A stretch of 33,581 bases of DNA from a virus, in the IMG/VR virus record IMGVR_UViG_3300021326_000150. One strand, written 5' to 3'. The position numbers were made by a program, and so were the translations under genes. The notes below the pieces were generated by a model. The model was not told the origin of the DNA and did not search any database. It saw nothing but the letters and a program-made list of their open reading frames with translations. Of this stretch, positions 6,867 to 30,949 are shown piece after piece (the stretch's first letter is position 1; each line of letters starts with the position of its first letter).

Positions 6867-6925
6867 TTTATAGCCTCTGATATATATTATAGCTATTATC
6901 TGCTTTATATTTTTTTAAAAATAGG

Positions 6926-6954
6926 TAGCTGGGAGAGGGTCTAATTCCCAGCTA
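6926..6954 (-). terminator. Hairpin downstream of the capsid operon
   Basis: TAGCTGGGA...TCCCAGCTA 9-bp stem, followed on the minus strand by CCTATTTTT, ~160 bp after the last capsid gene. Confidence 0.55.
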
Positions 6955-7112
6955 ATTCGGATTTGGAGTTTTTAAACTCGTAGCAGAAGATGTAGTGAAG
7001 AAAAACAATTGAAAACTCCACTATATCAACCTGAGATAGTAATATTCTTTTTCCCCTACACGCATCTCTTAACGAAAGGGCAGATAAATATTTAGGAGAT
7101 TTTACTATGGCT

Positions 7113-8045
7113 TTATGCTCTGAAATTACCTTTGATTATTCTATTAGGTGCGTTCATTAACACACCGACGGAGGAAAGTATGAATAGCTTTGTATACATA
7201 GGTAATTCATCACGAATGTCCTTGCGCATGAATTCAATTAATGGATAGAAATCGTACATCTCACCGTCCGGGCCTAAAGGTGCAACGGTTGTTCCTGTAG
7301 TCCTGGAGTATAACAATTTCATTCCGGGGTTAATGTAGTCCATACCAATATAGGTTTTGTCACCCATCTCAGCACCACCGTCACAGACAGCAGTTCCAAG
7401 GATATCAATATTATCAACGCCATAATAGCTTTTGATTAATTCTACCGGTTCAACTTGTCTGTTGCTTGAGAATATGTCAGATTTTAAAGTTGTTAATGAT
7501 TTATAGCTTACGGCCATACTGTTTAAGTTAGCATAGCTTCCAGCTGATTCTTTGAATTTCTCTTGAGCTTTGAGGATGGTCATACCGGTATCGTCACCAG
7601 ATTCAAAGTCATAGGTTGCAACTTTGGATGAATTCATTATCATGTCAATAGCTGCCTTTTCAATACTTCGGCCGATAAGAATACCGACATCCTGAAGCAT
7701 ATCATTAACAGAGATTAAATTGGAATCGAGCATTTGTGCGGAAACGTTTAATACTCCACCGATAGTGTCAATGGAGATAGTTTCACTGATTGGTTTTCTT
7801 ACGTTTAATTCCTGAAGGGTTGCACCTGGAGCAATGTCTTTGGCCTCTCCAAGTACACCTGCCTGAATAGCTTCCTCGATATTAACTCTTTGAGACATGT
7901 AAGTGTAATACTGGCTGTTTTCTTCTATCTCTTGCTTTGGAAGTAATCTGGTGAATTTCATCCATTTGGCTGAAGTGTCAGCAACAATTTGAGCCATTAC
8001 TTCATTTTGTACTTTAGCATCATTTCCTTTTGTTAACATTAACAT
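7113..8045 (-). CDS. Major capsid protein paralog 2 (HK97-like fold)
   Basis: 310 aa. GEAKDIAPGATLQELNVRKPISETISIDTIGGVLNVS..LDS is an E-loop/P-domain-like pattern, then backbone helix D...IGRSIEKAAI. Lies downstream of a decoration gene. Confidence 0.8.
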   Translation of the reverse strand: MLMLTKGNDAKVQNEVMAQIVADTSAKWMKFTRLLPKQEIEENSQYYTYMSQRVNIEEAIQAGVLGEAKDIAPGATLQELNVRKPISETISIDTIGGVLNVSAQMLDSNLISVNDMLQDVGILIGRSIEKAAIDMIMNSSKVATYDFESGDDTGMTILKAQEKFKESAGSYANLNSMAVSYKSLTTLKSDIFSSNRQVEPVELIKSYYGVDNIDILGTAVCDGGAEMGDKTYIGMDYINPGMKLLYSRTTGTTVAPLGPDGEMYDFYPLIEFMRKDIRDELPMYTKLFILSSVGVLMNAPNRIIKGNFRA

Positions 8046-8052
8046 TCACCTC

Positions 8053-8991
8053 TTATGGCCTGCAAGTACCTTTTAAAGCAAGACCAGGTTTATTTAATAA
8101 TATACCTACTTTACTTTGTATAAATAACTTTGTATATTGAGGTAACTCATCGTAGATATCTTTACGCATGATTTCAATGATAGGATAGAAGTCTGCAATG
8201 TTTTCATCGCTTGTAATAGGTGCAACAGTAGTTCCAGAAGATTTGGAATACAATACTGTTAATGGTGCATTACGGAGATCAAAACCAATGTAGTCTTTAT
8301 CACCAATTAATGAACCGCCGTCAGCTTGGGTTGTTCCTAAAAGATCTATATTATCAATACCGTAGTATGCTTTAATATCTTCTACAGGTTGTACACGTTT
8401 GTTACTTGCGTAAGCTAATTGTTTAACATAGCTTAATGTCTTGTAAGACTCAGCCATTATTGTTAAATCTGCACCTGCTCCAGCATTACCTTTGAAAGCT
8501 TCTTGTGCTTTGATAACAAATTTACCGAAAGCATCCATAGTATCGTCAGTTTCACTGGTATTGTAAACAGGAACATTTGGAGAGCTTATTATGGTATCGT
8601 AAATGTTAAACTCAATACGATTAGCAATAACAGTTGCTACATCGCCTAATAAATCTTCAAATGAAACAATATCTGAATCAAAGACATCTTTATTAACATT
8701 AAGGACTCCACCAACAGTATCAATGGAGATAGTGTCTGTTACTGGTTTTCTGATGTTTAATTCTTGAAGGCTTGCGCCTGGAGCAATGTCTTTGGCCTCA
8801 CCAAGAAGACCTTTTTTAATAGCTTCATCAAGATTAATGTTTTGTCTAAAGTAAGTATAATAATCTGAGTTCTCTTTAATTTCTTGTTTAGGAAACAATC
8901 TAGCTAATTTCAATCTTTTTGCGGTTTCATCAGTAATAGTTTGAGCTATTACCTCGTTTTGAACTTTGGTATTATTTCCTTTTGTAATCAT
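8053..8991 (-). CDS. Major capsid protein paralog 1 (HK97-like fold)
   Basis: 312 aa, colinear with 7113..8045 over its full length. The two share a 23-bp identical DNA stretch at 7825-7847 and 8777-8799. Confidence 0.8.
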   Translation of the reverse strand: MITKGNNTKVQNEVIAQTITDETAKRLKLARLFPKQEIKENSDYYTYFRQNINLDEAIKKGLLGEAKDIAPGASLQELNIRKPVTDTISIDTVGGVLNVNKDVFDSDIVSFEDLLGDVATVIANRIEFNIYDTIISSPNVPVYNTSETDDTMDAFGKFVIKAQEAFKGNAGAGADLTIMAESYKTLSYVKQLAYASNKRVQPVEDIKAYYGIDNIDLLGTTQADGGSLIGDKDYIGFDLRNAPLTVLYSKSSGTTVAPITSDENIADFYPIIEIMRKDIYDELPQYTKLFIQSKVGILLNKPGLALKGTCRP

Positions 8992-9004
8992 TCATTATCA
9001 CCAA

Positions 9005-9487
9005 CTATTCGGTTATGTCGTATGGTCTGAATACTTCAATGTATTTGTAATCATCTGAATTAGCTACAGGGTGCATTGCAATATATTCGCCGTCGTTTGA
9101 TTTAATAGCTCCAGTACTGCTTAAAGCTATTCTATCATTAACGGCAATGTTAGATAAACCGCTTGCTAATTTTAATCTGAATAAATGGCCTAATACAAGG
9201 ATGGCAGTTTTTCTTTTACCGCCAGTCATGGTAACTGGATCGTTAACTGCAATACCTAATATGATTTCACCGTCAGCTGCAGTGTATTTTTTAACTGTAG
9301 GTTTTCCAATATCTGAGTTAGCTGATAAGGTTACAGCGTCATCGACTTTGATTTTATCGCCTGCATACTCATATCCAGGAGTTTCTCCTGTTGGAGTTGT
9401 TACAGTAGTTGCAGTAATTGTACCTTCATCTAACAAGAAAGTTGTAACTTCTTTTCTTTCTTCAAGTAAAACAATTGCATCTGGCAT
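9005..9487 (-). CDS. Capsid decoration/cement protein (DUF2190-like)
   Basis: 160 aa, beta-rich: IKVDDAVTL, ILGIAVND, LVLGHLFRL, AVNDRIAL..GAI. Immediately precedes the capsid genes. Confidence 0.7.
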   Translation of the reverse strand: MPDAIVLLEERKEVTTFLLDEGTITATTVTTPTGETPGYEYAGDKIKVDDAVTLSANSDIGKPTVKKYTAADGEIILGIAVNDPVTMTGGKRKTAILVLGHLFRLKLASGLSNIAVNDRIALSSTGAIKSNDGEYIAMHPVANSDDYKYIEVFRPYDITE

Positions 9488-9497
9488 TATTAATGTC

Positions 9498-9620
9498 CTC
9501 CACTTATATTAAATATTATATAATTTATTATTTCTGTTATATAAATATCTCTATATAATGGCTACTTTTTTTAATCTTGCGTGGGGATTAACATTAACAT
9601 TAACGATTGACATTAACGGT
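9498..9620 (-). promoter_or_regulatory. Promoter region of the decoration-capsid operon: RBS, TATA box and upstream ACATTAAC cluster
   Basis: GGAGG at 9498-9502 (minus), TTTATATA at 9538-9545 (minus), and three ACATTAAC copies at 9591-9618. Confidence 0.6.
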
Positions 9621-9785: not shown

Positions 9786-11321
9786 TTAATTCATAAAATT
9801 AAAAAAGTCTTTTTCTAAAGGTAATTCAACATCATTGATGATTAAATCTCGTAAATTATTTAATTCATTTATCATAATATTTTTCTGGATGTCTAATTGG
9901 TAAATGCCTGAATTGTTAATCATTTCAGCATCTAATTCTTGAAAATTAGATAAATCCAATTTTGATTTATGATAATATTCATTATAGTAATATTTTTTAA
10001 TTTCATTTTGTTTTTCATCAGGGAAAATAGGAAATGGCAATTGTTTTAGATATGGAATTGCAATACTGCCCCCATTTCCACCAGTAGCGCAGATATCAAT
10101 TAATCCAATTTTTCTAAGATAATCTAAAAAACATTTAATAAAAATTGATTCTGATAAATTACTATCCTTATGAGTTAAAGTTATTCCATGGATATTTGTA
10201 ATTATATTATCATCATCAAAAATAATTAAAGACCTGCCTTTTTCAAATCCTTCTGCACCAAATATTATATCACCTTTATTTAAGGTTTTTAAATCATTTG
10301 GATTACCAATATATTCCTCTTCTAGAACAGTTCCATATATAGAAATATTTTTTGGTTTGATACATCTATAAAATCCTTTTTTTTGAACATCAGAATATAT
10401 TGAATCACCTATTGCAGAGAACTGAAGGTTTTGACCCCTACTAATCTCAAAATTCCAATCTTCAATGCCTTTAAAACCATGTTTATAATTAGTAATTAAA
10501 AACTCTTCATTTTTAAAATAGTCTGAGTATATAGAAGCATCTAATCTTTTTTTAGTATTTATTTCAGAAAATTTAGGAAAATTAAAATTAAAATTATCAT
10601 CTTTTTGATTATTTAAAATTTCCTCATGTATAACATCCATAATTTTATGATATTTATCCTGAATAGCTTTTTCACGATTAATTATAGCTTTAACTAATAA
10701 TGAAATATACTCAATAATTTTATTTCTGTTCTGATTAGGAAAAGGTATTTTTAAGTCTAACCATAATGTTTTCGCATGTTTTAATGTAGATCCTTTAGGT
10801 GTTAATAAGTATAATTGTTCTTTAAAGAAATCTGATTTCATCATTGCAAAAATATAATACTTTAAATCTTCCTCAAAAACTAATTTTACTAACCCTCCGG
10901 ACATAATATATTGATTTAAATCTTCATTAACATATACTACTTCGCCAACATTGGAATCTTTAACAATTAAAATATCTCCTTCAGTTAGGTTAAATTCTAC
11001 TTCTTTTTTTGCATAACTTTCAATATAATTTTCATAAGTTGTTGGAAAAATTGGTTGAGCTTCAGTATATGTATTAACACTAGGTAAAAAAGAATAACTT
11101 TGCACCGCTTTTGTTCTAATAAAATTAAATCCAGAATCAAAACTTAAATAATAGTCAGAACCAATATCATTTCCTATTATATAATCAATTAATAACTCTT
11201 TAACTAGCTTTATATTTTTATTTTTAATTGGCACAATATTATAGTTTGATGGAGTAAGCTTTTTATCATTACCTATTTCACTAAATCTAATTGTTTTAGG
11301 TGTCTTTGTATATTTCATCAT
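9786..11321 (-). CDS. Restriction-modification specificity (S) subunit with two target-recognition domains
   Basis: Duplicated architecture: L.EGDILIVKD..VG...YYIFAMMKS..GSTLKH...LKIPFP..Q and LNKGDIIFG..G...FIKCFL...G....LKQLPFPIFP..Q. Overlaps the upstream gene by TAATG. Confidence 0.8.
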   Translation of the reverse strand: MMKYTKTPKTIRFSEIGNDKKLTPSNYNIVPIKNKNIKLVKELLIDYIIGNDIGSDYYLSFDSGFNFIRTKAVQSYSFLPSVNTYTEAQPIFPTTYENYIESYAKKEVEFNLTEGDILIVKDSNVGEVVYVNEDLNQYIMSGGLVKLVFEEDLKYYIFAMMKSDFFKEQLYLLTPKGSTLKHAKTLWLDLKIPFPNQNRNKIIEYISLLVKAIINREKAIQDKYHKIMDVIHEEILNNQKDDNFNFNFPKFSEINTKKRLDASIYSDYFKNEEFLITNYKHGFKGIEDWNFEISRGQNLQFSAIGDSIYSDVQKKGFYRCIKPKNISIYGTVLEEEYIGNPNDLKTLNKGDIIFGAEGFEKGRSLIIFDDDNIITNIHGITLTHKDSNLSESIFIKCFLDYLRKIGLIDICATGGNGGSIAIPYLKQLPFPIFPDEKQNEIKKYYYNEYYHKSKLDLSNFQELDAEMINNSGIYQLDIQKNIMINELNNLRDLIINDVELPLEKDFFNFMN

Positions 11322-13423
11322 TAATCACCTAAAAACTTATGTTTTAATGTTTCTTCCTGAGTATTTACCCATTCTTTAAATTCTGTAATGATACTACTAA
11401 AGTCTTCAGCAAGAATTGCATCACCATTTTCATCAGTTACTACATCAAATGTTTCTTCATCAATTTTATATTTCTTTTTAAATGTTTTAATTGATTTAAC
11501 TGTTTTAACTTCATAACCAACGTTTTCTATTGTTTTTGCAAAAATTTCATAATCATTTTCTTTCAATTTATTTAATGTATCTTTATCTGGTTTATATCCT
11601 ATAATTAAAACTGTATTAACATTAGTATCAGCAAAAACATTTGTAGGTAGTTCAAATAATGCCACTATTCTAATATTGTCCATTAACCATTCTCTAGCTT
11701 TAACATCCCTATCTACGGATGCAATACTATTAGATAAAACGATTCCAAACCTACCATTCTCTTTCAATAATCTAACCGCATTTTCTAAGAATAAGATTCC
11801 CATATCCATGCTTTTACTTTTATCATTATCCCACAATTCATATAATTCAGCAATATCCCTATCTTTCCTATTTTTAGGTTTATATGCTCTGCCCTTACCA
11901 AAAGGAGGATTAGTTAAAACAACATCAAATTTCATTAATTCAGTTTTATCAACCCAATTATCCCAATTTCCATTTTGATGATATTTATGGTTTAATTCTA
12001 CAATATTTCCTTTAATATCAAATTTATGATTTAATGAACCTTTATTTGGAACATATTCAATCTTTGCATTTCCATCCCCATTAAGTAACATGTTTAATTG
12101 AGATAGCATAATCATTTGTTTGTCATTATCTAATCCATATAAGTTGGAATCATTTAACTTAGGGTTTGAATTAACGTAACTGACTGAGAGGAAATCACTA
12201 ATTCCAGTACATGGATCAATCAACCGTTCATTTCCTCTAGGGTTTACAATATTAACTAAAAAGTTAATTAATACTAATGGTGTTAAAAATTGTCCATTTT
12301 GTTCTTTAGCAAATTCATTAGAGAATTTATAGAAAACTAATTGATATAAATCAGTTTTATAAGATTTAATAAATGAATAATTTTGAAATGTTTCAACTAC
12401 TGAAATTACTGTTTGAATATGAGATTCATCTCTCCAATCAATATGGTCATTTTCTAAAATTTTAGTATACACTTCTTTTGCATTATCGAAGATATTAGTC
12501 ATTCTATTGATAAAGTTTTGTATGTTATCATCCATAAGAGAGTCATAATTCTTTTCTTCATCAAGAATATAAAAATTTAAAGGGGAATTATATTTCTCAT
12601 CATAAATCTTTAAAGCAAGAACTTCAATTATTATACGATAACCATCAGGTGAATTAAGACCAACTTTGTCTAAAGTAAATGTTACATTGTTTAAATCTTC
12701 ATTAATTTTATTAGATTTAATACCAGTAATTTTTTCTAAATCATCAACTGTTCTATTGCTTAAATCTACATTTACAAATTTTTTCTTATCTATGATATCT
12801 TTAAAAGATGGTAAGCTAGTATATGAATCAGGTAAGTGTAAAGATAACCTTTCTAATTCTGAATTTCCTTTACCATTTTTTGTATCATCATATCGAGTGT
12901 ATTTCTCATTATCTTTTTGAAAAATCCATAATTTCTCATGATCATAATATATCCCAACAACAAAATCTTTTTCGGATTCTTTCATTGCTGGTTTTAATTG
13001 TTGATTATAATAAGTTTCAAGTTTATTTCCTTTCTCATTTTTAAATTCAATTGCCACTATCAAATGTTTTCTTAACCAATCCAAATCATCTTGGGTTTTA
13101 TCAGTCCAAAATTTATTATAATGATTAATCCAATCTTTATCATCAAAAATAGCTGAATCCATTTTTAAAGGGGTTGATGATGGATTTCCTTTTGGAAAAA
13201 AAACTTCTGCACCTATATAATCTTTATTAAATAATCCTGAATTAATTATCGAATAAATAAATTGCCATTTATAATATTCTTCATTTGGAAGGGATTTTAC
13301 ATTTTTAATTGGGATATCTTTTTTCATTTTTCCATTAACTGGAACTAAACTATCTATGCTGCTTTTTTTCTCGTGTTCAGCATTGAATTTGTCTTTTGAC
13401 TCCTTAAATGATTTAGAACTCAT
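11321..13423 (-). CDS. Fused restriction endonuclease / N6-adenine methyltransferase (Type IIB/IIG-like, BcgI-A architecture)
   Basis: N-terminal PD-(D/E)xK-like MDSAIF...IVAIEFK. MTase motifs GQFLTP, IDPCTG, GLDND, VVLTNPPFG, LENAV.LL..GR.GIVL. Confidence 0.88.
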   Translation of the reverse strand: MSSKSFKESKDKFNAEHEKKSSIDSLVPVNGKMKKDIPIKNVKSLPNEEYYKWQFIYSIINSGLFNKDYIGAEVFFPKGNPSSTPLKMDSAIFDDKDWINHYNKFWTDKTQDDLDWLRKHLIVAIEFKNEKGNKLETYYNQQLKPAMKESEKDFVVGIYYDHEKLWIFQKDNEKYTRYDDTKNGKGNSELERLSLHLPDSYTSLPSFKDIIDKKKFVNVDLSNRTVDDLEKITGIKSNKINEDLNNVTFTLDKVGLNSPDGYRIIIEVLALKIYDEKYNSPLNFYILDEEKNYDSLMDDNIQNFINRMTNIFDNAKEVYTKILENDHIDWRDESHIQTVISVVETFQNYSFIKSYKTDLYQLVFYKFSNEFAKEQNGQFLTPLVLINFLVNIVNPRGNERLIDPCTGISDFLSVSYVNSNPKLNDSNLYGLDNDKQMIMLSQLNMLLNGDGNAKIEYVPNKGSLNHKFDIKGNIVELNHKYHQNGNWDNWVDKTELMKFDVVLTNPPFGKGRAYKPKNRKDRDIAELYELWDNDKSKSMDMGILFLENAVRLLKENGRFGIVLSNSIASVDRDVKAREWLMDNIRIVALFELPTNVFADTNVNTVLIIGYKPDKDTLNKLKENDYEIFAKTIENVGYEVKTVKSIKTFKKKYKIDEETFDVVTDENGDAILAEDFSSIITEFKEWVNTQEETLKHKFLGD

Positions 13424-15003: not shown

Positions 15004-15009
<6 letters not shown>
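14722..15009 (+). CDS. DUF2958-like small mobile-element protein
   Basis: PIVVKF...W.WYI......YGLVDG.EKELG.F.L.E..V pattern. GGAG RBS. Confidence 0.7.
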
Positions 15010-16176
<1,167 letters not shown>

Positions 16177-16180
16177 TATT

Positions 16181-17203
16181 TTATTCCTCCTCATGTGTCC
16201 ATGGTTCAATACTTATTCTTTCCCATTGAATGTGGCCTCCTGCTTCATAAATCATTATTGCAGGATAGAATGTATCAAATGTTATCTTATCTGAAATATC
16301 AGCTTCATATGTGAAATCATCTGTAGCTCCATGTGTTATTGTAGCTTTAACATAACCGTTATCATAATACAAATCAAAATAATACTTCTGCGAATCCAAT
16401 GCCAGCTGTCCTGATGAAACATTAACATCCCGTACTACATGGTCAGATGTGGAATATTTCAGTCCTTTCTTAGCAGGATAAGCACCCAGTTCCAGAATTT
16501 TTGTATCTCTGTAATGGCTTAATGATTTGGAATTGACTAAAGCTATTGCATCGCCCCATCCCTGGTTGCTGTCCTTTTTCTGATAGATAGCTACTTCCAT
16601 ATGAATTCCGCTTGTCCCATCAATACCGTTAGAGTATACCCCGGGTATTGCCATTACTACAGAAGCTGCTACAGTATCTTTTGCCAAATCATAAACCTCA
16701 CTATCATCTACCATATCAATATCAAATGTGGGTGATATGCTTGTTGGATACTTAACAATTTCATAAGCCCCTAAATTTCCATCCCATGCATAATCATCGA
16801 AATTTAAAAATGGAACGCATGTATAATTAATGTTAAAGGCTTCTTTTCTTCCAACTTTGCAGATGACAGTTCCTGTAGCATCTTTAACATATGGTACTGT
16901 AACGGCTGACTTTCCGTTAGAATCTGTTCTGACAACACTGTGAACTCCATCAACCCACCAGTCAATTGGAACTCCTGAATCTTCAAGTGTTACGCTGTAT
17001 TCAAATCCTTCCGGAGGAACTGTATCTGATTTTACAATACGTAATACGGGGATTCCAAACATCATCATTAACCGTTCTGCAAGTTCAAATATTGTGAGAG
17101 TATTGTCCCACCAGATGTTATATTCAGTCAGCTTATTTCTAAGCTTTGTTCTTGTATTTCCAAGCCTTGTGTTTTCCAAAATAACATTACTAGCTATGCT
17201 CAT
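16181..17203 (-). CDS. Putative virion fibre/receptor-binding protein with beta-rich C-terminus
   Basis: N-terminal RLGNTRTKLRNKL...TIFELAER shared with the next gene. Start placed at MSIASN (17203), avoiding a 92-nt overlap. Confidence 0.65.
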   Translation of the reverse strand: MSIASNVILENTRLGNTRTKLRNKLTEYNIWWDNTLTIFELAERLMMMFGIPVLRIVKSDTVPPEGFEYSVTLEDSGVPIDWWVDGVHSVVRTDSNGKSAVTVPYVKDATGTVICKVGRKEAFNINYTCVPFLNFDDYAWDGNLGAYEIVKYPTSISPTFDIDMVDDSEVYDLAKDTVAASVVMAIPGVYSNGIDGTSGIHMEVAIYQKKDSNQGWGDAIALVNSKSLSHYRDTKILELGAYPAKKGLKYSTSDHVVRDVNVSSGQLALDSQKYYFDLYYDNGYVKATITHGATDDFTYEADISDKITFDTFYPAIMIYEAGGHIQWERISIEPWTHEEE

Positions 17204-17213
17204 CTTTAACGCC

Positions 17214-18074
17214 TCACAGTTCCGGTTCATAATATATTTTTGTATCTTTTGTGTTGCATATGGTGTGGGCGTCTGATTTGTAGCCATCACTGCCATATGC
17301 TCCAAATACTATCTCATCGGAATTCCATACATCTCCCGGATCAAAAGTTCCTGAAATTAAGACATTATCGTTTGAATCCTTGAATATGTATTGCAGATAA
17401 TAGTCATCTGTTTTTTTAAGAATCATTGTTCCTTCAGCAAATGGATGATTGTTATCACGTACTGAATCATTTGCAACCCCCCATCCGTTGTCCAGTGAAA
17501 AGACTCCGGGATATCCTCCGACAGAACCTATGAATACTCCAGTATAACCGTCGGGATTATAATCTCTAATCAGTCCAGAACTTTCATGGTTTTCATCTAC
17601 AAGGAATCCAATTCCCATTAATCCGTTCCATCCTCCGGATATGTTGAATTGTGATTCAATTCTCCATCCGTCATTATCTCCATAATAGTATGTTCCGGGA
17701 GTAGTGACAAATTTACCGAAAGTTGCAGTGTAATACCAACCGTCCTCTTCAAACTGATCTTGAGTATCATCATTTGTATATGATACACAATAGTTTCCAT
17801 TGTTGGCACTTGACCATGATGCAGCACTGATATTAGCCATCTTATACAAGGTTGATAGTTTTCCTGCGGTCTGGGGATTAACATTAACGTCCGTTTGAAA
17901 TATCGGAAGAATTTCATACCTGTCTATTAATTGATTAATGCTATCTGTCTGACTATAACTGATTCCGGCATTTGTCAGCCCTGTTCTCAGATTAGTTCTT
18001 AAGGTTGTTAATCTGGAATTCATTAGCTGTTCATTAGCCAGAACTTGTGAAAGGTCAGGAGGGGTGAAACTCAT
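17214..18074 (-). CDS. Putative virion fibre/receptor-binding protein (lectin-like C-terminus possible)
   Basis: N-terminal RLTTLRTNLRTGL...SINQLIDR. C-terminus rich in G/W/Y/D/N beta strands. Confidence 0.65.
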   Translation of the reverse strand: MSFTPPDLSQVLANEQLMNSRLTTLRTNLRTGLTNAGISYSQTDSINQLIDRYEILPIFQTDVNVNPQTAGKLSTLYKMANISAASWSSANNGNYCVSYTNDDTQDQFEEDGWYYTATFGKFVTTPGTYYYGDNDGWRIESQFNISGGWNGLMGIGFLVDENHESSGLIRDYNPDGYTGVFIGSVGGYPGVFSLDNGWGVANDSVRDNNHPFAEGTMILKKTDDYYLQYIFKDSNDNVLISGTFDPGDVWNSDEIVFGAYGSDGYKSDAHTICNTKDTKIYYEPEL

Positions 18075-18079
18075 CTTAA

Positions 18080-18934
18080 TCAGCTCCCGAGCAAATTCAA
18101 GTTTGCTGTTTGTGTGGATGTTATTGTTCCAATAGCTGTTTGGACATTTTCAATAGCTATAGCTACCGGTGCGTTTTTAATAGCGTTGGTTGTATCGGTT
18201 GTATCTAAAGTGCTTGCAAGATTAACAGGGCCGGTATCACCAGTATCTCCTTTATCACCTTTAGCGCCAGATGTACCGGTATCACCTTTAGGTCCGGCAG
18301 GGCCAGTATCACCAGTATCTCCTTTCAGACCACTCACCCCAGTATCTCCTTTTTCACCGGATGCACCAGTATCTCCTTTAGGTCCTTTCAAATTAAAATA
18401 TTGGTCAACTAATGCTTTACCATCACTTATACATGCAATATGACATATATTATTATCAGTTCTTGTGAGTACCCAGTCTCCAAGATTTACTTCTGTTGCC
18501 CATGTATTATTCTCCAATAAATCACTGACATAAAATCCTCCATATAATGAAGGTTGAGCCGGACAGCCTGTTGAAGATAAACTGCTGTTTCTGCCACTGA
18601 TGGACAGTAATATTTGTGCTCCGGCTTTACCTGCAGGACCTGTTTCACCAGTGTCTCCGTGAATACCTGTTGCTCCGGACATGTCTGTTATGAATGTGAA
18701 TTCGGATGTTCCTCTGAGATATAATTTAGCGTTATCGGGATCTTCAACATTAGATTGGATTGCAACAAAACTTCCATCAGGAACATTATTGAAATCAGCT
18801 TCCATTAATGCTATTGTTGAATATGTTTTAAAAATTGTGAATGGTGCGCCTGCAGGACCTGTTTCACCAGTAGCTCCTTGAGGTCCTGTTGCTCCTATAT
18901 CACCTCTTAAGTTTCCAACATTTCTCCAAGTCAT
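18080..18934 (-). CDS. Collagen-like fibre protein
   Basis: Three G-X-Y blocks separated by FTIFKTYST...DNAKLYLR and Cys-containing domains. Confidence 0.85.
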   Translation of the reverse strand: MTWRNVGNLRGDIGATGPQGATGETGPAGAPFTIFKTYSTIALMEADFNNVPDGSFVAIQSNVEDPDNAKLYLRGTSEFTFITDMSGATGIHGDTGETGPAGKAGAQILLSISGRNSSLSSTGCPAQPSLYGGFYVSDLLENNTWATEVNLGDWVLTRTDNNICHIACISDGKALVDQYFNLKGPKGDTGASGEKGDTGVSGLKGDTGDTGPAGPKGDTGTSGAKGDKGDTGDTGPVNLASTLDTTDTTNAIKNAPVAIAIENVQTAIGTITSTQTANLNLLGS

Positions 18935-18937
18935 TTA

Positions 18938-19576
18938 TTATTCCTCCCATACATAAAGTTCGCCGTTAATTAAGTAAGCATCTCCCACTTGAGGATTTGG
19001 AACGTTCTCTTCCAATTCTTCCAGACTATCATATGAGCCTTTTATTATTGTTGATATTCCGGCAGGGCCAGTATCACCAGTATCTCCTTTCTCTCCTTTA
19101 GCACCGCCACCTGCTAATTTAAAACAGTTAATGTAATTGTATTCATCAGAATCTTCCACAGGATGTAATGCCAAGTATTCACCTGATGAATCTTTAACGG
19201 CTCCGTTTTCACCCAGTTTGATTTTATCGGCCGGTGCAATATCTTTAACACCGCTGGCCAGTTTGAGTCTGTAAAGATGGCCTAACACTAACACACTGGC
19301 TTTTCTTTGGCCGTTATCCATTACTGTCGGGTCATTAACGATTATGCCTATTGGTATTTCATCATTATCGCCAGTGTATTTTTTAACCATTTCTTTTCCG
19401 ATTTCGGATTTGTCTGAAATGGTTACTGTATCTTCAGGATATAATTTGTCAGTGTAATCATAACCGATGCTTTGGCCTGTTTGTGTAACTACGTCTTTTG
19501 AGGTTACATCTCCATCATCAAGTAAAAATGTTGTGACTTCTTTTCTTTGTTCAAGTAAAACTATTTGGTCTTGCAT
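18938..19576 (-). CDS. Decoration-domain protein fused to a short collagen segment and a truncated IKGSYD domain
   Basis: N-terminal ~155 aa closely parallel 9005..9487 (IVLLE.RKEVTTFLLD.G; VLGHL.RLKLASG). Ends GDAYLINGELYVWEE. Confidence 0.85.
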   Translation of the reverse strand: MQDQIVLLEQRKEVTTFLLDDGDVTSKDVVTQTGQSIGYDYTDKLYPEDTVTISDKSEIGKEMVKKYTGDNDEIPIGIIVNDPTVMDNGQRKASVLVLGHLYRLKLASGVKDIAPADKIKLGENGAVKDSSGEYLALHPVEDSDEYNYINCFKLAGGGAKGEKGDTGDTGPAGISTIIKGSYDSLEELEENVPNPQVGDAYLINGELYVWEE

Positions 19577-20175
19577 TAAACACTCACCTCATATATGTGA
19601 TTACCTTTAACGTGGGGATTGCATTTGATATTCATTTCATGTTTTCTGGCTTCTGTGCAGAAATATAAATCTTCAGAAAGTACTGTATCATCGTCGTAGA
19701 TAACATATCTGAAATATGGATAGCTCATCTTTCTGAAGACATTAACATTAACGAGGCTGATTCCAAGTCCTCCTCCTTTAACGTCAATGGGATTGTTAAG
19801 GTTCCATAATGTTTTTCCATAGATCATGTTTTTGTCAGTGTAATCTTTTCCAAAATCATAGATGACGGTTTGATCTGTTTTTGTTCTTTTCTTGTAATAC
19901 CAGCCTAAAGCAATATCCGTTTCACACTTTAACAGATTGTTTACAGTTTGTCTAGGCACACTAACATCTGAATCTACCATTAACACATAGTCAAAGTCGT
20001 ATTTGATTGCTAGCTTTGCTATTTCGTTTCTTGCACGTGCGCAGTCATAGCCTTTAACATAATCAAAATATAGTAAATAATCGTTAGGATTTTTCATGCC
20101 GTAAATACTTTTAAAGCATTCCGGTTTGATGTTTTCGAATGTTGGAACGGCAATTAGGATTTTACCTTTCATCAT
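19576..20175 (-). CDS. GT-A fold (GT2-like) glycosyltransferase
   Basis: KILIAVPT, ARARNEIA...FDYVLMVDSD (DxD), GGGLGISLV, SEDLYFC, H. Start placed at MMKGK. Confidence 0.88.
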   Translation of the reverse strand: MMKGKILIAVPTFENIKPECFKSIYGMKNPNDYLLYFDYVKGYDCARARNEIAKLAIKYDFDYVLMVDSDVSVPRQTVNNLLKCETDIALGWYYKKRTKTDQTVIYDFGKDYTDKNMIYGKTLWNLNNPIDVKGGGLGISLVNVNVFRKMSYPYFRYVIYDDDTVLSEDLYFCTEARKHEMNIKCNPHVKGNHIYEVSV

Positions 20176-20443
20176 TGCCCTCCAGCTTTTCGATTCTCTC
20201 TTCCAGTTCATCCAAGTTTATCTTGTCTTGTTTTTCACATGTATATTCATAAATGTCAATTACTGCTACAATAACAATAGCTACTGTTAATGGTAACAGT
20301 CCTTCGATTAAAGCATACTTTGTTGCGTTGGTCATTATGATGTTGATAGCTATTGCTGTTAAAACTGCACTGGAGATTGTTTTGGTAAAGTTACAAATGA
20401 CTATTTTATTTTTTAGTTTGTTCATGATAACAATATCCTCCAA
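20162..20443 (-). CDS. Small two-TM membrane protein (holin-like)
   Basis: Two hydrophobic segments followed by a charged coiled tail. Confidence 0.6.
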   Translation of the reverse strand: MEDIVIMNKLKNKIVICNFTKTISSAVLTAIAINIIMTNATKYALIEGLLPLTVAIVIVAVIDIYEYTCEKQDKINLDELEERIEKLEGNDER

Positions 20444-20449
20444 AGAAGT

Positions 20450-20701
20450 TTATTTTTCTTCAGGATATCCCAAAACTTTTTTAGTTTTTTGTTTAGCGTC
20501 TTCAACATCTCCCTCGCCTCTTATTCTACTTGCATAATGACTAGCTACACCTAACACTATCATAAGAATGCAATAAGGAAGAGTATTTTCAGTAATACCC
20601 AATGCCTCTGAATATAACATTACTATTGGAATAACGGTAACTAAAAATGATGTTAAAATATCAATGTCCTTTCTGTTTCGCTCCAACCATTCATAAATCA
20701 T
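20450..20701 (-). CDS. Small two-TM membrane protein (holin-like)
   Basis: ILTSFLVTVIPIVMLY and LPYCILMIVLGVASHY segments with a charged C-terminus. Confidence 0.6.
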   Translation of the reverse strand: MIYEWLERNRKDIDILTSFLVTVIPIVMLYSEALGITENTLPYCILMIVLGVASHYASRIRGEGDVEDAKQKTKKVLGYPEEK

Positions 20702-20861
20702 TGCTTATCACCTCATCTTCAAAATCCTTATATGTATGGCTTAGGATTATACCATCAACACAAATCTTTTCTTCACTTTCGTATACTTCTTCAGCATTTT
20801 CTTTTATGCTCATCCAGGATTCGTATTCTTCTAAAGTTTCAAAGTATTTTATGTATTTCAT
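20691..20861 (-). CDS. Small acidic protein
   Basis: Start MKYIKYFETLEEY at 20861, ATGA-overlapping the upstream gene, GGAGG RBS. Confidence 0.6.
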   Translation of the reverse strand: MKYIKYFETLEEYESWMSIKENAEEVYESEEKICVDGIILSHTYKDFEDEVISNDL

Positions 20862-21049
20862 TGTGCCTCCCATGTAATGGAATAGTATAGTATACCATCT
20901 TCGATTTTAAATTCAATTACGGGTTTAACTGCATAAGGATAACCACTATCAACGTATTTGGTTCCGTTCCAGTAGAACCAGTGCCCTGTTGATTGGTCTA
21001 TGTATGGTCCTTTGTTTTCTAAAGTTCCGACAAGTTTCCTTATAGTCAT
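20858..21049 (-). CDS. Small fibre-module protein
   Basis: GPYID..TGHWFYWNG..YVDSG motif seen in phage collagen-fibre linkers. GAGG RBS and upstream TATA box. Confidence 0.65.
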   Translation of the reverse strand: MTIRKLVGTLENKGPYIDQSTGHWFYWNGTKYVDSGYPYAVKPVIEFKIEDGILYYSITWEAQ

Positions 21050-21103
21050 GTTAACAACCTCTCTATAATATTATATGTTTTATTACTTATTTTATTATTT
21101 TGT

Positions 21104-21880
21104 TTATATAAAGTATACATTTTCGCCATCATCACAACCGTCCCATTCCATGTATAACTTATTGTCTTCCCAAACAAACCGTACATTATTAACAATAGCT
21201 ACATCCGGAAGCTCACAATAAGTAACACCGTCTGCATCTTTAACATAATTGGCCTGCGCCATAATATTGGATTCCGTTGGTACGATCATATTAACAACAT
21301 GAGTTATTTCATCCTGTTCAAAAGAACAGTCAGCAAGATCAATACAGTTCTGAGATTCTGGATACATTTCAATTTCAGACATCTGCCTGTATACTCTAAT
21401 GTATTCAGTGTCTTCATTTTCCGTTAGATTAACAATGGAAAGTAATCTTAAATCATGGCCTTCAACCGGATTGCACTCACCGTCACTGTCAATGTAGATT
21501 CTGGTATTCGGCAATATATCTGCAGGAGCAGGTCTTTTGAGTTTTAATCTGAAAACATCACCCAGTACCGCAACAGTAACAAGAGTATGGCCGGATGATT
21601 TAACCTGCACCTTACCTAACAGATAACCGAAGGCCAGTTCACCAGCCTGTGCTTTTCTAACAATTGTATGCTGCATTGTGGATGATTCATCAAGTGTTAC
21701 CATCTCACCTACTGCACATTGGTTTTCACATATCCACGCCGTATGCTCATCATTAACGTAGAACCTTTCGCCCTCATCAAGTAAACAGGCAATAACGTCC
21801 ATCTTTTCTTCATGTTCAAGTCCTGTTGGATATCCACGGCCATGTCCTATAGTACTGCCGTCATCATAGTCACTTATCAT
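21104..21880 (-). CDS. Third, divergent decoration-domain paralog with C-terminal extension
   Basis: MDVIACLLDEG, AVGEMVTL, VAVLGDVFRLKL, EYIRVYR align with the two other decoration proteins. Confidence 0.7.
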   Translation of the reverse strand: MISDYDDGSTIGHGRGYPTGLEHEEKMDVIACLLDEGERFYVNDEHTAWICENQCAVGEMVTLDESSTMQHTIVRKAQAGELAFGYLLGKVQVKSSGHTLVTVAVLGDVFRLKLKRPAPADILPNTRIYIDSDGECNPVEGHDLRLLSIVNLTENEDTEYIRVYRQMSEIEMYPESQNCIDLADCSFEQDEITHVVNMIVPTESNIMAQANYVKDADGVTYCELPDVAIVNNVRFVWEDNKLYMEWDGCDDGENVYFI

Positions 21881-21881
21881 T

Positions 21882-23072
21882 TTAAAACACCCAATCCCAA
21901 TTATGGTTAATTATTTTATCTGGAATGTGAAGTCCAGTATCAGTCATGTCCTCATCGTCTGCATCCCACAATAACCTACTGCCTTTGTAAGCTTTAGGAT
22001 ATTCATGACTTCCTTTATACAATCTAATACCTGTTTTAGAATCCCTTTGCGTTACTGTTATTGCGGGAATAGAATTAGCTGCAAGTAATGGTGACGGGAA
22101 TATTAACATCCATTTCAGGTCAATGTAGTTGTATTCTTCAAAAGCGGTTGTTAAAAACCATCCTGGAGCAACTTCAATTTCATGGTAATTGTTGTCATAA
22201 ATTTTAGTTGGATTGTTTCTGTCGAATCCCTCCAGGTAATCTGAGTCACTGCTGAACCCGTTTGAGACTCTCCCATGGAAATGGTATTGTTTATAATTTC
22301 CCTCCTCATCACTGCCTGAAGCATATGCATCATTGGAATTAACCTGCACTAATGTTTTAGTTCCGTTAAACATTAAGTAAGATTTTTCACCGTCCCAATT
22401 CAAGGATGTGACTTTTATATCTTCCTGATATGTTGTGAGATTATAGTCAGTCTGCATCATGTATGTTCCAGTTGTTGTTCCATGATATGTTGCATTATCA
22501 TTAACATCCACACAACCGGAAATCCGTTTAAATCTTGCAACAGTAACACGATTGTTTGATAGACTTCCACCAGAGGCGAATGTTGTAAATAATGATGTTG
22601 GTGAACTTCCATCCATACTTGGAACAAATCTAGCTCTTAAAAATCTGCCCCCATCCGTTGAATCATTGTTGATACTTAAACCTGAGTATGTCATAAAAAA
22701 CTGGGAGTATGTGTCAGAATTTGCATCGAACATTAACACCTCACCACCAGTGGATAAAGTGCTGCTGAAGATGGTTGAGGTATCATAAACATCAAGAAAT
22801 AGCTTTGTTGTTTGGGAGATCTTACCGACCGGAACCCTGACCAGGATAGCTGCCGGTTGAGATCCATAACTTGGAATGTATAATACTGGACAGTTGCTTC
22901 CATCTTTGGTTTTGATCTTTAAGTTTTTCAAATCACTTCTGAAAAGATTGGAATAAGAACTGTTGGCCAGATTATCCAAGAAGATGTAATCATAGTTGGA
23001 TGAATAGCTACCGCTTCTTTGCGTGTAATTGTTTATTACAATATTGATTTGTAATTCCGCTTGCAATGTCAT
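21882..23072 (-). CDS. Putative virion surface protein with N-terminal DUF2341-like domain
   Basis: SDLKNLKIKTKDG..CP.LY......ILVRVP....KLFL pattern, then a beta-rich region and C-terminal YKGSRLLW. Confidence 0.55.
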   Translation of the reverse strand: MTLQAELQINIVINNYTQRSGSYSSNYDYIFLDNLANSSYSNLFRSDLKNLKIKTKDGSNCPVLYIPSYGSQPAAILVRVPVGKISQTTKLFLDVYDTSTIFSSTLSTGGEVLMFDANSDTYSQFFMTYSGLSINNDSTDGGRFLRARFVPSMDGSSPTSLFTTFASGGSLSNNRVTVARFKRISGCVDVNDNATYHGTTTGTYMMQTDYNLTTYQEDIKVTSLNWDGEKSYLMFNGTKTLVQVNSNDAYASGSDEEGNYKQYHFHGRVSNGFSSDSDYLEGFDRNNPTKIYDNNYHEIEVAPGWFLTTAFEEYNYIDLKWMLIFPSPLLAANSIPAITVTQRDSKTGIRLYKGSHEYPKAYKGSRLLWDADDEDMTDTGLHIPDKIINHNWDWVF

Positions 23073-24718: not shown

Positions 24719-25696
24719 CTAAATTCTAGTTCTATTGAATCCCATATCCTTTAATATCTTATTATATTCCTCACGAGTTGTAAAAGAAGGTGAATCTTCA
24801 TCTCCAGTACTTCCAGTGTCGCCAGTGTCTCCAACATCACCAGAGTTTCCGGGATTCCTACCACCCGGTGTGGAACCGTCTTTACTAGCTTCAATTTTAA
24901 TTCTTCTCTCAGCCAGTTTCTCCATTAGCTCCATATCAACGTCACCGGACAATAGCTTATCAATTATTTCTTTATCCTGAGCATTCTCATTATAGTTAAA
25001 GTTGTACTTGGCCTCGTACTCTTTAATCTTCCTTTCATTCTCAGCTTTTCTAAGTTCAGATAATTCCTTTAAGATATCATCTTTACTTTCAATGAAGTCC
25101 TTATTTTCTTCAATATCTTTTTTAATTTCTTCATATCTTTCAGATTCTTCTTTTAGAGTTTTAATCTCTTCCTGAAGTTTTCCGATTTCCGCATCCTTGC
25201 CTTGCAGTTTCTCCAATAGTAAGGTAGTAGCTACATTAGCTTCTTTACTTGGAGGTTGAGGTTGTGGCTGCGGTTGAGGTGCCGGATTACCTGGTTCGCC
25301 AGTGGCACCGGTATCTCCAGTAATATCAGAATTCAACAGGGTAATTTTTCTAGGGCTTTTGGTTACGCCAACATCTATTAGGCTCATAGTATCAATTCCA
25401 AATGAATCTCCGTTATCTTTTAATAAGACATCTATTTTAGGGGATAAACCTTTTCCTTCCATATCCAGTTCATCAGGAACTTCAAGGAATAGTTTTCCTT
25501 CCTCGTATTCTATATTGTTTCCGATGCCAACGTAGATATTGTCATGTTCTGAAGTTAAAGGAATTCCTCCACGATAGTTTTCAGCTATTAGTTTTAGATC
25601 ATCTTCAGTCCATTCAACAGGTTTATCAAGTTTTTCGTCCAGGTCAGAATAGTCGTATGATCCAACTTCAAAAAGTTCATGCCTCATTATTATCAC
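24719..25696 (-). CDS. Prohead protease-scaffold fusion
   Basis: N-terminal IPLTSEH..G....LSP...DVGVT..PR resembles the prohead serine-protease His/Ser pattern. Pro/Gln linker and C-terminal coiled coil. Directly follows the portal gene. Confidence 0.78.
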   Translation of the reverse strand: MIIMRHELFEVGSYDYSDLDEKLDKPVEWTEDDLKLIAENYRGGIPLTSEHDNIYVGIGNNIEYEEGKLFLEVPDELDMEGKGLSPKIDVLLKDNGDSFGIDTMSLIDVGVTKSPRKITLLNSDITGDTGATGEPGNPAPQPQPQPQPPSKEANVATTLLLEKLQGKDAEIGKLQEEIKTLKEESERYEEIKKDIEENKDFIESKDDILKELSELRKAENERKIKEYEAKYNFNYNENAQDKEIIDKLLSGDVDMELMEKLAERRIKIEASKDGSTPGGRNPGNSGDVGDTGDTGSTGDEDSPSFTTREEYNKILKDMGFNRTRI

Positions 25697-25737: not shown

Positions 25738-27039
25738 TTATATTTCAACTCCACTGTCAGTTAAAATCCTTTCACCGACCGGTTGCTCCTCTTCAAAGTT
25801 ACTTAAATAGTTCTTATAGATTTCATCACCCTCAGAGGACAATTCCATAATATATCTTAATACATCATCACGAGAATAACTGAAGTAAACATCTAAAGTT
25901 TCTTTAACACCCATTAACTCCAATTGCCTCTTTAATAATTCATTGCAATACTTTAACACCCACTTCTGGTCATTAGCAACATTAACAATAAACCCAGTAA
26001 TAGCTGAATCGTTAATGTACTCAGCAACATTCTGATTGGATTTCTCATTACCTGCCTGTGACTGCGGTGTCACGAAAGTCCTTAAAATATTATTCCTGAA
26101 GATTTCCGTTTGCCTTGTATAGTCAGATTGATAATTGTTACCCCCAAGTATTTTAGATTCGATTCCTGGAGGTACAATAGCTACATTACTTCCGGCCGTG
26201 GTTCCGTAATCAGCATATAGGTTTTCCTTTGCAGTGGATGAAAGTTCTGTAATTATAGGCTGACCGTTACTGTCCAGTGAAGGTTTAACCTCAATAATAT
26301 TATCCTTATTAATACGCTCCACCTGATTCCTTTCAAGATTGCACTTATGATAAATATCATCCAAGCAGTTCAGGATAATGCTTTGGGCTTCTGAGTAGAT
26401 TTCATTGTACATGAAGTTAATAACCTCATCCGGTTCATACTTGACCGTTAATGTGCCTTCCTCAATACTAACGAAATTATTGAAGTCTTCAGGTGAACCG
26501 TTAACAATATCCTTTGGCATTTCATGAAGGTATAGCTGCACTTCATTATCATCATTAAACTCTTTCTTTAATCCGTAACCGTGAGCGCCGATTTCAAGAA
26601 ATATAGGTTTAATATATTTACCAATACTTTTATCCCATCTCTCTACAGGTTTAATTAATCCCTCACCGTCTACCATTCCGCCCTGAAGGATGTTCTTTGC
26701 AACTTGCGAAATATCAATCATCCTGGCCCAAAGTATTAAAGTCAATTTCTGTTCAGCAGATAACTTCTCTTCCTTATCAACCAGTACTATATTAACATTA
26801 GCTTTATCAATTCTATTTTTCAATACTCCTGCAGTGTAACCGTCAAGTTTAACAGCATACCTTGCGTTAGCTATAGTTTTATTTATTACAGGGGGAAGTG
26901 CATCAGGAAGGTCAAGACCGGTATTGATCCCGTCAGTACGTGGTTGTCTTTCATCCTCACCCCAATAGCTGCGCTTAGTATTGTACTGTTCCACACGGTT
27001 ATTCAGCAATCTGGTTTTTATAAAATCAGTAACGCCCAT
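25738..27039 (-). CDS. Portal protein
   Basis: ~433 aa, first large structural gene after terL and directly before the protease. DGEGLI, SIILNCLDDI, IVPPG..KILG, NI...F..P pattern. Start placed at MGVTDF. Confidence 0.72.
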   Translation of the reverse strand: MGVTDFIKTRLLNNRVEQYNTKRSYWGEDERQPRTDGINTGLDLPDALPPVINKTIANARYAVKLDGYTAGVLKNRIDKANVNIVLVDKEEKLSAEQKLTLILWARMIDISQVAKNILQGGMVDGEGLIKPVERWDKSIGKYIKPIFLEIGAHGYGLKKEFNDDNEVQLYLHEMPKDIVNGSPEDFNNFVSIEEGTLTVKYEPDEVINFMYNEIYSEAQSIILNCLDDIYHKCNLERNQVERINKDNIIEVKPSLDSNGQPIITELSSTAKENLYADYGTTAGSNVAIVPPGIESKILGGNNYQSDYTRQTEIFRNNILRTFVTPQSQAGNEKSNQNVAEYINDSAITGFIVNVANDQKWVLKYCNELLKRQLELMGVKETLDVYFSYSRDDVLRYIMELSSEGDEIYKNYLSNFEEEQPVGERILTDSGVEI

Positions 27040-27040
27040 A

Positions 27041-27205
27041 TTATCCATTTCCAATTGTTACTGTGAATAAGTTTTCAGTATCGACACTGTTGAATCTTCT
27101 GAGTTTAAAATCAGTAAGGTCCAGAAGGTTTTCAAGTTCGTGGCATGCGCTTAAATCAGAATCGTGTCCTTCATAGTCCAGTTCAATAATTATTCTTCTC
27201 ATCAT
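27041..27205 (-). CDS. Small protein (54 aa, below ORF-track cutoff)
   Basis: MMRRIIIELDYEGHDSD...; GGTGA RBS; stop abuts the portal start. Confidence 0.55.
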   Translation of the reverse strand: MMRRIIIELDYEGHDSDLSACHELENLLDLTDFKLRRFNSVDTENLFTVTIGNG

Positions 27206-29530: not shown

Positions 29531-30949
29531 TTATGTAGAATACCATTTATCAACATCAACTCTTTGAGGTTGCTTTTCACTAGCCAGTTTCTCATATGCA
29601 CCGGTGAATGCAACAACACAGTCATCGTGAATGGATTCGTTAGGGTAGGCTGTAATTTTTTCAAGAAATTCCATGGCCCATTTTTTAGTAAACCCTGTTC
29701 TATCCTTCCCAACCAGGAAAATTCCGTTAAGTTGGATGTCAGCTGAAACTCTTCTGGCACGGTCAACTTTATTCTCACGTGAATTTCCAGTGCCTGTAGT
29801 AAATCCTCTTCGGTTTAATTCATCAATAATTAACAGGCCAAAGTTCTTACCAGTGGAACCGTCAAGTTCTATATACTGCACATCCGCTTTATCACGCGCT
29901 GCAGTGTTAATGATTTCATTAATAAGATTCCGTGACTCCAATTGAAACTCATAAGAATCAAGGATGTAGATATTGCCGTTTAAATCTTTGGCCAGTAACA
30001 CTCCTGCGGTATAATCTGGATCATTACCTTTCAATTTGTCATCGTTGAGAACTTCAGTTGCAGCAAGATCCCAATACCTGATGATCCGGATGATAGGTAT
30101 TTTCAAAAATTCGTCATGAGAGATCAAGTGGAAATCTGATTCATCAAATAGCTCACCTTTAACTGAAGCATACCAGTTACCGTTCATTAACTGCTCACGT
30201 GTAACTCTATCCAAGCCCATAAGATATTCTTCATAGTCCTGTCTGTCCAGATAAACATTATCGACATAACTGGAGCTGATAAATCTTATCTGGTCTTTGT
30301 CCTGAATGTCTGCATCTATCTTTTCGATGAATCTTTCCCTGACCCATTTATTACCACGCTTACCAGGATTACTTGAGCACATTAACTGTGTTGGAAGTTT
30401 ATTGTCTTTAGTTTTTCGGACACGTGAACGCATATAAATATATTTAAAGCGTTCCAGTTGCGTTAACTCATCAATGCCAATGAACTGGTATTCAGAACCC
30501 TGATAAGTATCGAGGTCGTTAATGTTACGTAAATATCCGAAGGTTAAACTATTGCCGTTTGGAAATGTCCATGAATGTTCAGTACCATCCCACTTCGGCC
30601 GAATAGCTGGGTCTCTTTGAATCTCTTTACGGTTAAGCCATTGGCTGGCTTTATGAATTAAAGCACCTTTCCTTTTCAAATCAGATAATGTTCTACGCAA
30701 TATTAATGCATGGTATTCATTAACATCGTCCTGAACATAAAATAAGGCTCTCATTAACAGGCTGGTTGATTTACTACCTCCAGCGGCACCACCAATTAGA
30801 ACTTCCTTTTCTGTTGCTAGAATCATCTCAGCTTGTTTGACAAATGGTTTAAATGGTATGTATGGATTTTCATATACACATTTTTGAAGAATAGCTTTGT
30901 CTCTTGCACCTAAATAGAATTGGCCATCTTTATTGTACATTATTATCAT
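29531..30949 (-). CDS. terL: Terminase large subunit
   Basis: Walker A GGAAGGSKS, Walker B FIGIDE, motif III SSNPG, nuclease RYWDLA...D...HDDCV. Confidence 0.96.
   Translation of the reverse strand: MIIMYNKDGQFYLGARDKAILQKCVYENPYIPFKPFVKQAEMILATEKEVLIGGAAGGSKSTSLLMRALFYVQDDVNEYHALILRRTLSDLKRKGALIHKASQWLNRKEIQRDPAIRPKWDGTEHSWTFPNGNSLTFGYLRNINDLDTYQGSEYQFIGIDELTQLERFKYIYMRSRVRKTKDNKLPTQLMCSSNPGKRGNKWVRERFIEKIDADIQDKDQIRFISSSYVDNVYLDRQDYEEYLMGLDRVTREQLMNGNWYASVKGELFDESDFHLISHDEFLKIPIIRIIRYWDLAATEVLNDDKLKGNDPDYTAGVLLAKDLNGNIYILDSYEFQLESRNLINEIINTAARDKADVQYIELDGSTGKNFGLLIIDELNRRGFTTGTGNSRENKVDRARRVSADIQLNGIFLVGKDRTGFTKKWAMEFLEKITAYPNESIHDDCVVAFTGAYEKLASEKQPQRVDVDKWYST

Follow-up and report, generated by a model that had tools for sequence, protein, structure and literature searches.

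Why should a tailed virus of an archaeon carry two major capsid protein (MCP) genes side by side, and what could each of them contribute to the particle? Capsids with the HK97 fold nearly always use a single protein for both hexamers and pentamers, T4 being the textbook exception. The question is raised by IMG/VR record IMGVR_UViG_3300021326_000150, a tailed-virus genome (~34 kb) of rumen/gut Methanobrevibacter, of which one strand of 33,581 nt was analysed (the window, to which all positions refer). On its minus strand, three tightly spaced genes follow one another in the order dec (9005–9487, encoding 160 amino acids, aa), m1 (8053–8991, 312 aa), and m2 (7113–8045, 310 aa counted from the first ATG). 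A sequence-only reading, made from the letters and a list of open reading frames (ORFs), had taken m1 and m2 for tandem, full-length MCP paralogues, and we found both ORFs as described. Two related subunits probably make up the capsid, and we expect both in the virion. A division of labour like that of T4, with m1 as the hexamer (face) subunit and m2 as the pentamer (vertex) subunit, strikes us as about equally likely to be right or wrong, because the evidence from codon usage and that from Shine–Dalgarno sequences disagree.

As claimed, the two proteins are colinear paralogues: BLASTP aligned them with 173 of 311 positions identical (56%, E = 8e − 128) and a single 4-residue gap at m1 152–155, and their N-termini share the pattern M-I/L-TKGN..KVQNEV.AQ. 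The HK97 fold of m1 was confirmed by an AlphaFold model based on 19 family members (predicted local distance difference test score, pLDDT, 83.2; predicted template modelling score, pTM, 0.81), for which Foldseek returned 398 PDB matches at E ≤ 0.001, led by the capsids of PhiTE, NF5, HRP29, HK97, and HFTV1 (E between 1e − 11 and 1e − 8 for PhiTE, NF5, HK97, and HFTV1), with encapsulins lower down; nearly all of the 282 matches in BFVD were MCPs. For m2, the same fold can be read from its end-to-end identity to the modelled m1 and from a pass in Pfam, where it reached 31.8 bits against PF25209 (Phage_capsid_4, cut-off 27 bits). No Pfam match was obtained for m1 at E ≤ 1, and the single MCP of a relative described below (L117) scored 24.6 bits against PF25209, under the cut-off, so that the family stands at the edge of this model. 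Searches of PHROGs, NCBIfam, and PDB sequences with the capsid paralogues gave no match.

Among the 110 ORFs of the window, the family profile matched only m1 and m2, so these are the genome's only capsid-shell candidates. A 396-aa ORF beside the protease gene was considered as a hidden third MCP and rejected (hhalign probability 1.7%, no profile match). The pair is encoded together with the terminase large subunit (TerL), a portal protein, and a protease, the last two named via vir323, a GenBank phage discussed below. The genomic context, a viral genome of 34 kb in which TerL, tail-fibre, and further virion genes are present, likewise led us to reject an encapsulin as the identity of m1 and m2.

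The 23-bp patch of identical DNA reported for the two genes is real (8777–8799 in m1 and 7825–7847 in m2, both on the minus strand). It covers m1 codons 65–72 (EAKDIAPG) in the predicted E-loop, a region of low model confidence and high conservation. A run of this length arose in 5% of codon-column shuffles and is therefore borderline unusual; its synonymous sites vary among loci, and the identity at the DNA level is not kept elsewhere. Amino-acid conservation plus chance explains the patch. Ongoing gene conversion, as a source of both the patch and the similar N-terminal third, was rejected, since synonymous sites vary and m1–m2 identity within a locus (0.695) is close to that between loci (0.684).

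How old and how widespread is the pair? Matches to the family profile were present in 48 of 329 Methanobacteriota species genomes, 44 of them in a single genus of rumen and gut Methanobrevibacter-like archaea (44/103), with some genomes carrying two to four copies, and the dec–m1–m2 triad was recovered from 65 metagenome loci (rumen, goat, and human gut). Its presence in ~100 loci, including the single-contig genomes G127 and G162, disposes of the concern that the duplication is an assembly artefact. Both genes were intact in 78 loci (68 of them non-identical), and a lone copy of m1 or m2 was found in none of the intact loci. Neutral evolution of one copy, another concern voiced in the sequence-only reading, was not seen either: across the 68 non-identical loci, the ratio of nonsynonymous to synonymous substitution rates (dN/dS; Nei–Gojobori, pairs with 0.05 < dS < 1.5) was 0.038 for m1 and 0.031 for m2, with dec at 0.062. 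In a quick IQ-TREE search, m1 and m2 formed two fully supported monophyletic clades (stems 0.32 and 0.36) with the same internal subclades. Because both clades share these subclades, the duplication predates the radiation of this virus group, and m1 and m2 have co-diverged ever since. Among 1.84 billion proteins, the family comprised 81 representatives at E ≤ 0.001, many of them fragments.

In a minority of loci the pair is broken (~10 in m1 only, ~5 in m2 only, and ~4 in both genes), and several of these share a mutation by descent; we read them as dying proviruses or poor, low-coverage contigs, not as a sign of dispensability. Contigs of three metagenomes (L058, L064, and L096) carry the same change of m1 codon 77 from GAA to TAA, and an adjacent, independent nonsense mutation (codon 76, CAG to TAG) was found in L085; both codons belong to the conserved LQELN motif. 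Because the first mutation is shared by three metagenomes, a defective lineage seems to be in circulation, probably fixed as a provirus. Several genomes hold more than one locus: four in G001, with m1 86–98% identical to that of the window, two in the complete genome G127, and multiple copies also in G221. Polylysogeny by related viruses of this group seems common.

Two distant relatives with a single MCP bear on the state before the duplication. The first (L117, IMG/VR UViG_3300002834_000020) encodes the MCP P0145 (family profile, E = 5e − 114) in the order TerL, a 423-aa portal-sized gene, two genes, a dec homologue directly upstream of the MCP (profile E = 2e − 21), the MCP itself, and tail genes, one of them of tape-measure size (1,246 aa); the 291-aa gene that follows the MCP was examined as a cryptic paralogue and rejected. 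The second (L113), a provirus in genome G008, has one MCP (profile E = 2e − 36) in a myovirus-like module with a tail sheath. The MCP family is common to both relatives and the window, but the relatives keep it in a contiguous TerL–portal–...–MCP head module and have different tails (the tape-measure-sized gene and the tail sheath, respectively). Because both relatives have one MCP, in L117 as part of a dec–MCP pair, the ancestral virus likely had a contiguous head module in which dec stood before a single MCP gene. The lineage of the window likely duplicated this gene, and the capsid operon and the portal gene are now far apart. The nearest outgroup protein, P0122, shares 46% identity with m1 and 45% with m2 and joins them in a three-way polytomy; a query of metagenome contigs with P0122 returned m1/m2-type loci only, whereas P0129, P0137, and P0148 had no related locus in IMG/VR and P0162 had none in genome contigs.

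We then considered where the two copies differ. In the alignment of the 68 loci, both clades have the same fixed residue in 147 columns and different fixed residues in 78; a further 27 columns are conserved in m1 alone and 34 in m2 alone. Fixed differences occupy 40% of positions in the spine helix (m1 residues 101–135), 26–29% in the central helices (152–212), and 46% in the C-terminus (300–312), with 30% in the N-arm (1–33), 15–18% in the E-loop region (34–100), and 22% in the P-domain hairpin (273–299), where 70% of positions are fixed and identical. From this spread it would follow that the shared elements are those predicted to tie neighbouring subunits and capsomers together, while the elements that diverged and were then frozen are predicted to pack around the capsomer axis. 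The 78 fixed differences, together with the retention of both genes in every intact locus, argue for non-redundant roles.

Expression signals were examined as a guide to how the proteins are made. A distance of 7 bp between m1 and m2 had been given, and this holds from the first m2 ATG (8045); from the ATG at 8039, which is probably the true start and would give a protein of 308 aa, the gap is 13 nt. We place the start there, and regard the annotated ATG as probably wrong, because a stop codon lies directly 5′ of the equivalent of ATG 8039 in five related loci, and because the Shine–Dalgarno sequence GAGGTGA is 6 nt from ATG 8039 but abuts (0 nt) ATG 8045. In intact loci, the m2-type gene begins 9–16 nt after the m1-type gene. 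All three genes have strong, conserved Shine–Dalgarno sequences, with the GGAGG of dec present in all loci and a mean duplex free energy of −11.1 kcal/mol for m2 versus −9.6 kcal/mol for m1.

That the three genes form one operon had been asserted outright; short spacings, a shared upstream element, and a downstream hairpin support this, short of proof. A non-coding stretch of 300 bp precedes dec and holds a block resembling a B recognition element and TATA box (BRE/TATA; AAAAAGTAGCCATTATATAGAGATATTTATATA, 9538–9575, minus strand), a candidate promoter. In 52 of 53 loci, a TATA-like motif falls within the 120 nt that precede dec, and in the loci displayed the sequence around it is visibly conserved. 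Downstream of m2, a hairpin (GCTGGGA...TCCCAGC) followed by a T-run (6910–6952, minus strand) is a putative terminator; it has 6 pairs, 2 of them with compensatory changes (RNAalifold), and is kept in 20 of 25 loci. Because of the TATA-like block upstream, the hairpin and T-run downstream, and the tight spacing between, dec, m1, and m2 look like one transcription unit. The sequence 3′ of m2 (6896–7112) comprises ~200 nt of conserved, modular non-coding DNA that ends in the hairpin and T-run. From one locus to another, blocks such as CCCTTTCG...GCGTGTAGGG and GTGGAGTTTT...CTTCAC are either kept whole or missing altogether; this region could be more than a terminator.

Codon usage gives a different hint about stoichiometry. 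The codon adaptation index (CAI), computed against the ribosomal-protein operon of the nearest available host genome, was 0.653 for dec, 0.644 for m1, 0.515 for m2, and 0.455–0.555 for other virion genes, and it was higher for m1 than for m2 in 54 of 68 loci. Despite the common operon, G+C content at third codon positions (GC3) in the window is 0.21 in m1 versus 0.36 in m2 (means across loci, 0.32 and 0.39). By codon usage, m1 thus resembles dec, presumably a high-copy product, and m2 resembles virion genes of low copy number. In a T = 7 shell, a hexamer/pentamer split needs a ratio of ~6.5:1.

We favour a face/vertex split because of where the fixed differences lie and because of codon usage. 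A single old tandem duplication of one MCP gene would have given rise to m1 and m2, both kept since as functional shell subunits of one capsid. In this scheme, the hexamers would consist of m1, abundant and synthesised alongside the cement-like 160-aa protein, and the eleven pentameric vertices of m2.

Several observations weigh against this assignment. The CAI gap largely follows GC3 and comes from loci that are not independent, measured against a reference that is only the nearest host genome. The Shine–Dalgarno sequence of m2 is at least as strong as that of m1 and the genes are 9–16 nt apart, which suggests that both are synthesised at similar rates and not at the ~6.5:1 that the split needs. 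With 56% of positions identical, m1 and m2 are far closer than gp23 and gp24 of T4 (~20%). The domain names used above were assigned by fitting the model's secondary structure to the canonical HK97 topology, not from coordinates. Finally, polarised against seven outgroups, the fixed differences are m1-like in 33 cases, m2-like in 21, and neither in 22, so that both paralogues are about equally derived and neither looks like a specialised offshoot.

The alternative that survives best, possible in our view though doubtful, is that hexamers contain both proteins, produced in comparable quantities and arranged either in a fixed pattern or in a variable tiling like that of the two-component Family 2B encapsulin of Streptomyces lydicus. 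We keep such mixed capsomers in consideration because both genes, tightly spaced in one unit, have equally strong, conserved ribosome-binding sites; symmetric divergence from the outgroups and equal dN/dS also fit, and the shared E-loop and P-domain would make mutual contact possible. A mixed HK97-fold shell has a precedent in this encapsulin, in which two HK97-fold paralogues co-assemble (PMC11071501), although that shell is a cellular nanocompartment with cargo, whereas the window pair lies amid terminase, portal, protease, and tail genes. Codon usage, which places m1 with dec and m2 with low-copy genes, speaks against mixed capsomers, and fixed differences in intra-capsomer contact elements fit separate capsomer types better. 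Even a strictly alternating hexamer would still require a homo-pentamer at the vertices.

It is unlikely that one copy is not a shell subunit at all and acts instead as an assembly chaperone or scaffold-like protein, as a special capsomer that surrounds the portal, or as a decoy for host defences that sense capsid protein. Such a role would suit a genome in which no classical helical scaffold gene was recognised beside the capsid genes and the 160-aa neighbour is predicted to be all-beta. Both copies, however, keep the N-arm, the E-loop motif, the P-domain hairpin, and their full length under equally strong constraint, and a scaffold function could be supplied by the coiled-coil-like region of the protease ORF.

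Less likely again are alternative shells, in which the two proteins replace each other according to condition or host, or form two particle types or sizes. Nothing supports this directly, but with several fibre and decoration paralogues and no detectable tape measure the particle may be unusual. The shared promoter region, with no regulatory element between the genes, counts against it, as do the retention of both genes in every intact locus with 78 fixed differences, and the single portal, protease, and terminase. Loci with one or both genes broken might be cited for an artefact of assembly or for a young, neutral duplicate that is being lost, but this reading can practically be dismissed, given that 56% identity is incompatible with assembly collapse or expansion, that the pair stands in the single-contig genomes, that dN/dS is 0.03–0.04 for both, and that both genes are hit in broken loci.

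Known systems place the face/vertex split in context. T4, in which gp23 forms the hexamers and gp24 the vertex pentamers, has a 169-kb genome and a prolate head. The window virus has 34 kb, an archaeal host, a probably isometric head, and capsid genes that lie away from those for portal and protease. The two pairs are alike in being adjacent HK97-fold duplicates with the (here proposed) abundant one first, and differ in family (gp23 versus PF25209-like) as well as in identity; no gp23-family match for m1 or m2 was found in Pfam or PHROGs, and the duplication in the window is independent and much younger. Mutations that let gp23 replace gp24 in T4 affect intra-capsomer contacts of the A domain (PMC9958956), and the fixed differences of the window pair likewise concentrate in central and spine helices. 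Dual HK97 MCPs have also been reported in ANME-1 viruses of the proposed Ekchuahviridae, where they were termed unusual among Caudoviricetes, with T4 cited (bioRxiv 10.1101/2022.07.04.498658). The ekchuahvirus genomes are 72–81 kb with a separate protease for each MCP, unlike the one protease and close tandem pair of the window.

The novelty implied by the sequence-only reading was thus overstated, also because vir323 (Caudoviricetes sp., BK063679.1 / NC_133304.1; host Methanobacteriales; 34,179 bp, circular, from a goat faecal enrichment) already names both genes. This is the sole GenBank phage with the family, and its m1 orthologue is 93.6% identical (tblastn). Its gene order is colinear with that of the window, and vir323_00024 and vir323_00025, both annotated as 'major head protein, HK97-like fold', follow the 160-aa gene; genes beside the terminase are annotated as 'portal protein' and 'prohead protease'. 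The two genomes differ in that vir323 has a methyltransferase and a hypothetical gene where the window has a restriction-modification module. The gene pair is therefore already catalogued in GenBank; no isolate, proteome, or electron microscopy data on this virus group were found in the literature searched. The two-MCP shell arrangement is rare, and here an independent, much younger duplication occurs in a small genome, with single-copy relatives and dozens of natural variants. It would offer a compact system for finding the residues that commit an HK97 subunit to five- versus six-fold packing, or for mixed shells in viruses. As the virus group is very common (44/103 species genomes), its particle structure matters for virus–host biology in methane-producing communities.

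The gene upstream of the pair had been called a decoration gene, a plausible though unproven label. Its AlphaFold model is all-beta at low confidence (pLDDT 51), and on this model a helical scaffold is unlikely. None of 15 homologues had a Pfam match (HMMER), and no PDB sequence matched. Language-model neighbours (0.95–0.96) carry the cement families PF09956, PF22758, and PF23968 in 13–71% of members, which is a lead only, and the vir323 orthologue is labelled 'preneck appendage protein' in GenBank. A decoration or cement protein is the best reading of dec, though unproven.

Two further genes of the window are related to dec. One, at 18938–19576 (minus strand), encodes a paralogue with a collagen-like tail (profile match; BLASTP 56% identity over 154 aa, E = 3e − 62), and proteins related to it carry Pfam Collagen repeats; a third member of this set lies at 21104–21880. 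The identity between dec and the collagen-tailed paralogue is the same figure as that between m1 and m2, and the single-MCP relative L117 has one dec-type gene in the 17 kb read. The MCP and cement-gene duplications may be linked. A more elaborate and rather unlikely version would have both duplicated in parallel to give a position-specific lattice, in which m1 hexamers bind the 160-aa cement and m2 pentamers socket the collagen-tailed paralogue as vertex fibres. If true, this would be an adenovirus-like penton-plus-fibre arrangement of independent origin on the HK97 capsid of a gut archaeal virus.

The genome has one portal, one protease, and one terminase. The capsid operon lies behind the fibre genes, ~16 kb from the single-copy prohead protease (24719–25696) and the portal gene (25738–27054), both on the minus strand and named from the colinear vir323 annotation; neither ORF has a Pfam match in the window, and that of the protease includes the coiled-coil-like region. 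TerL (29531–30949, minus strand) was identified by Pfam Terminase_6N, Terminase_3, and Terminase_6C. The window also holds collagen-repeat and tail-tip fibre genes and two restriction-modification modules. One of these modules, at 9786–13423 between the fibre genes and the capsid operon, consists of two genes, a 700-aa Eco57I-like methylase fusion and a 511-aa specificity-like subunit. Its GC3 of 0.14–0.16 is far below the value for the virus backbone and suggests that the module was acquired recently. No tape-measure-sized ORF was found in the tail region (15004–23072), where the largest ORF has 401 aa. Related head genes are thus found with three tail types: that of the window, that of L117 with its tape-measure-sized gene, and that of L113 with its tail sheath.

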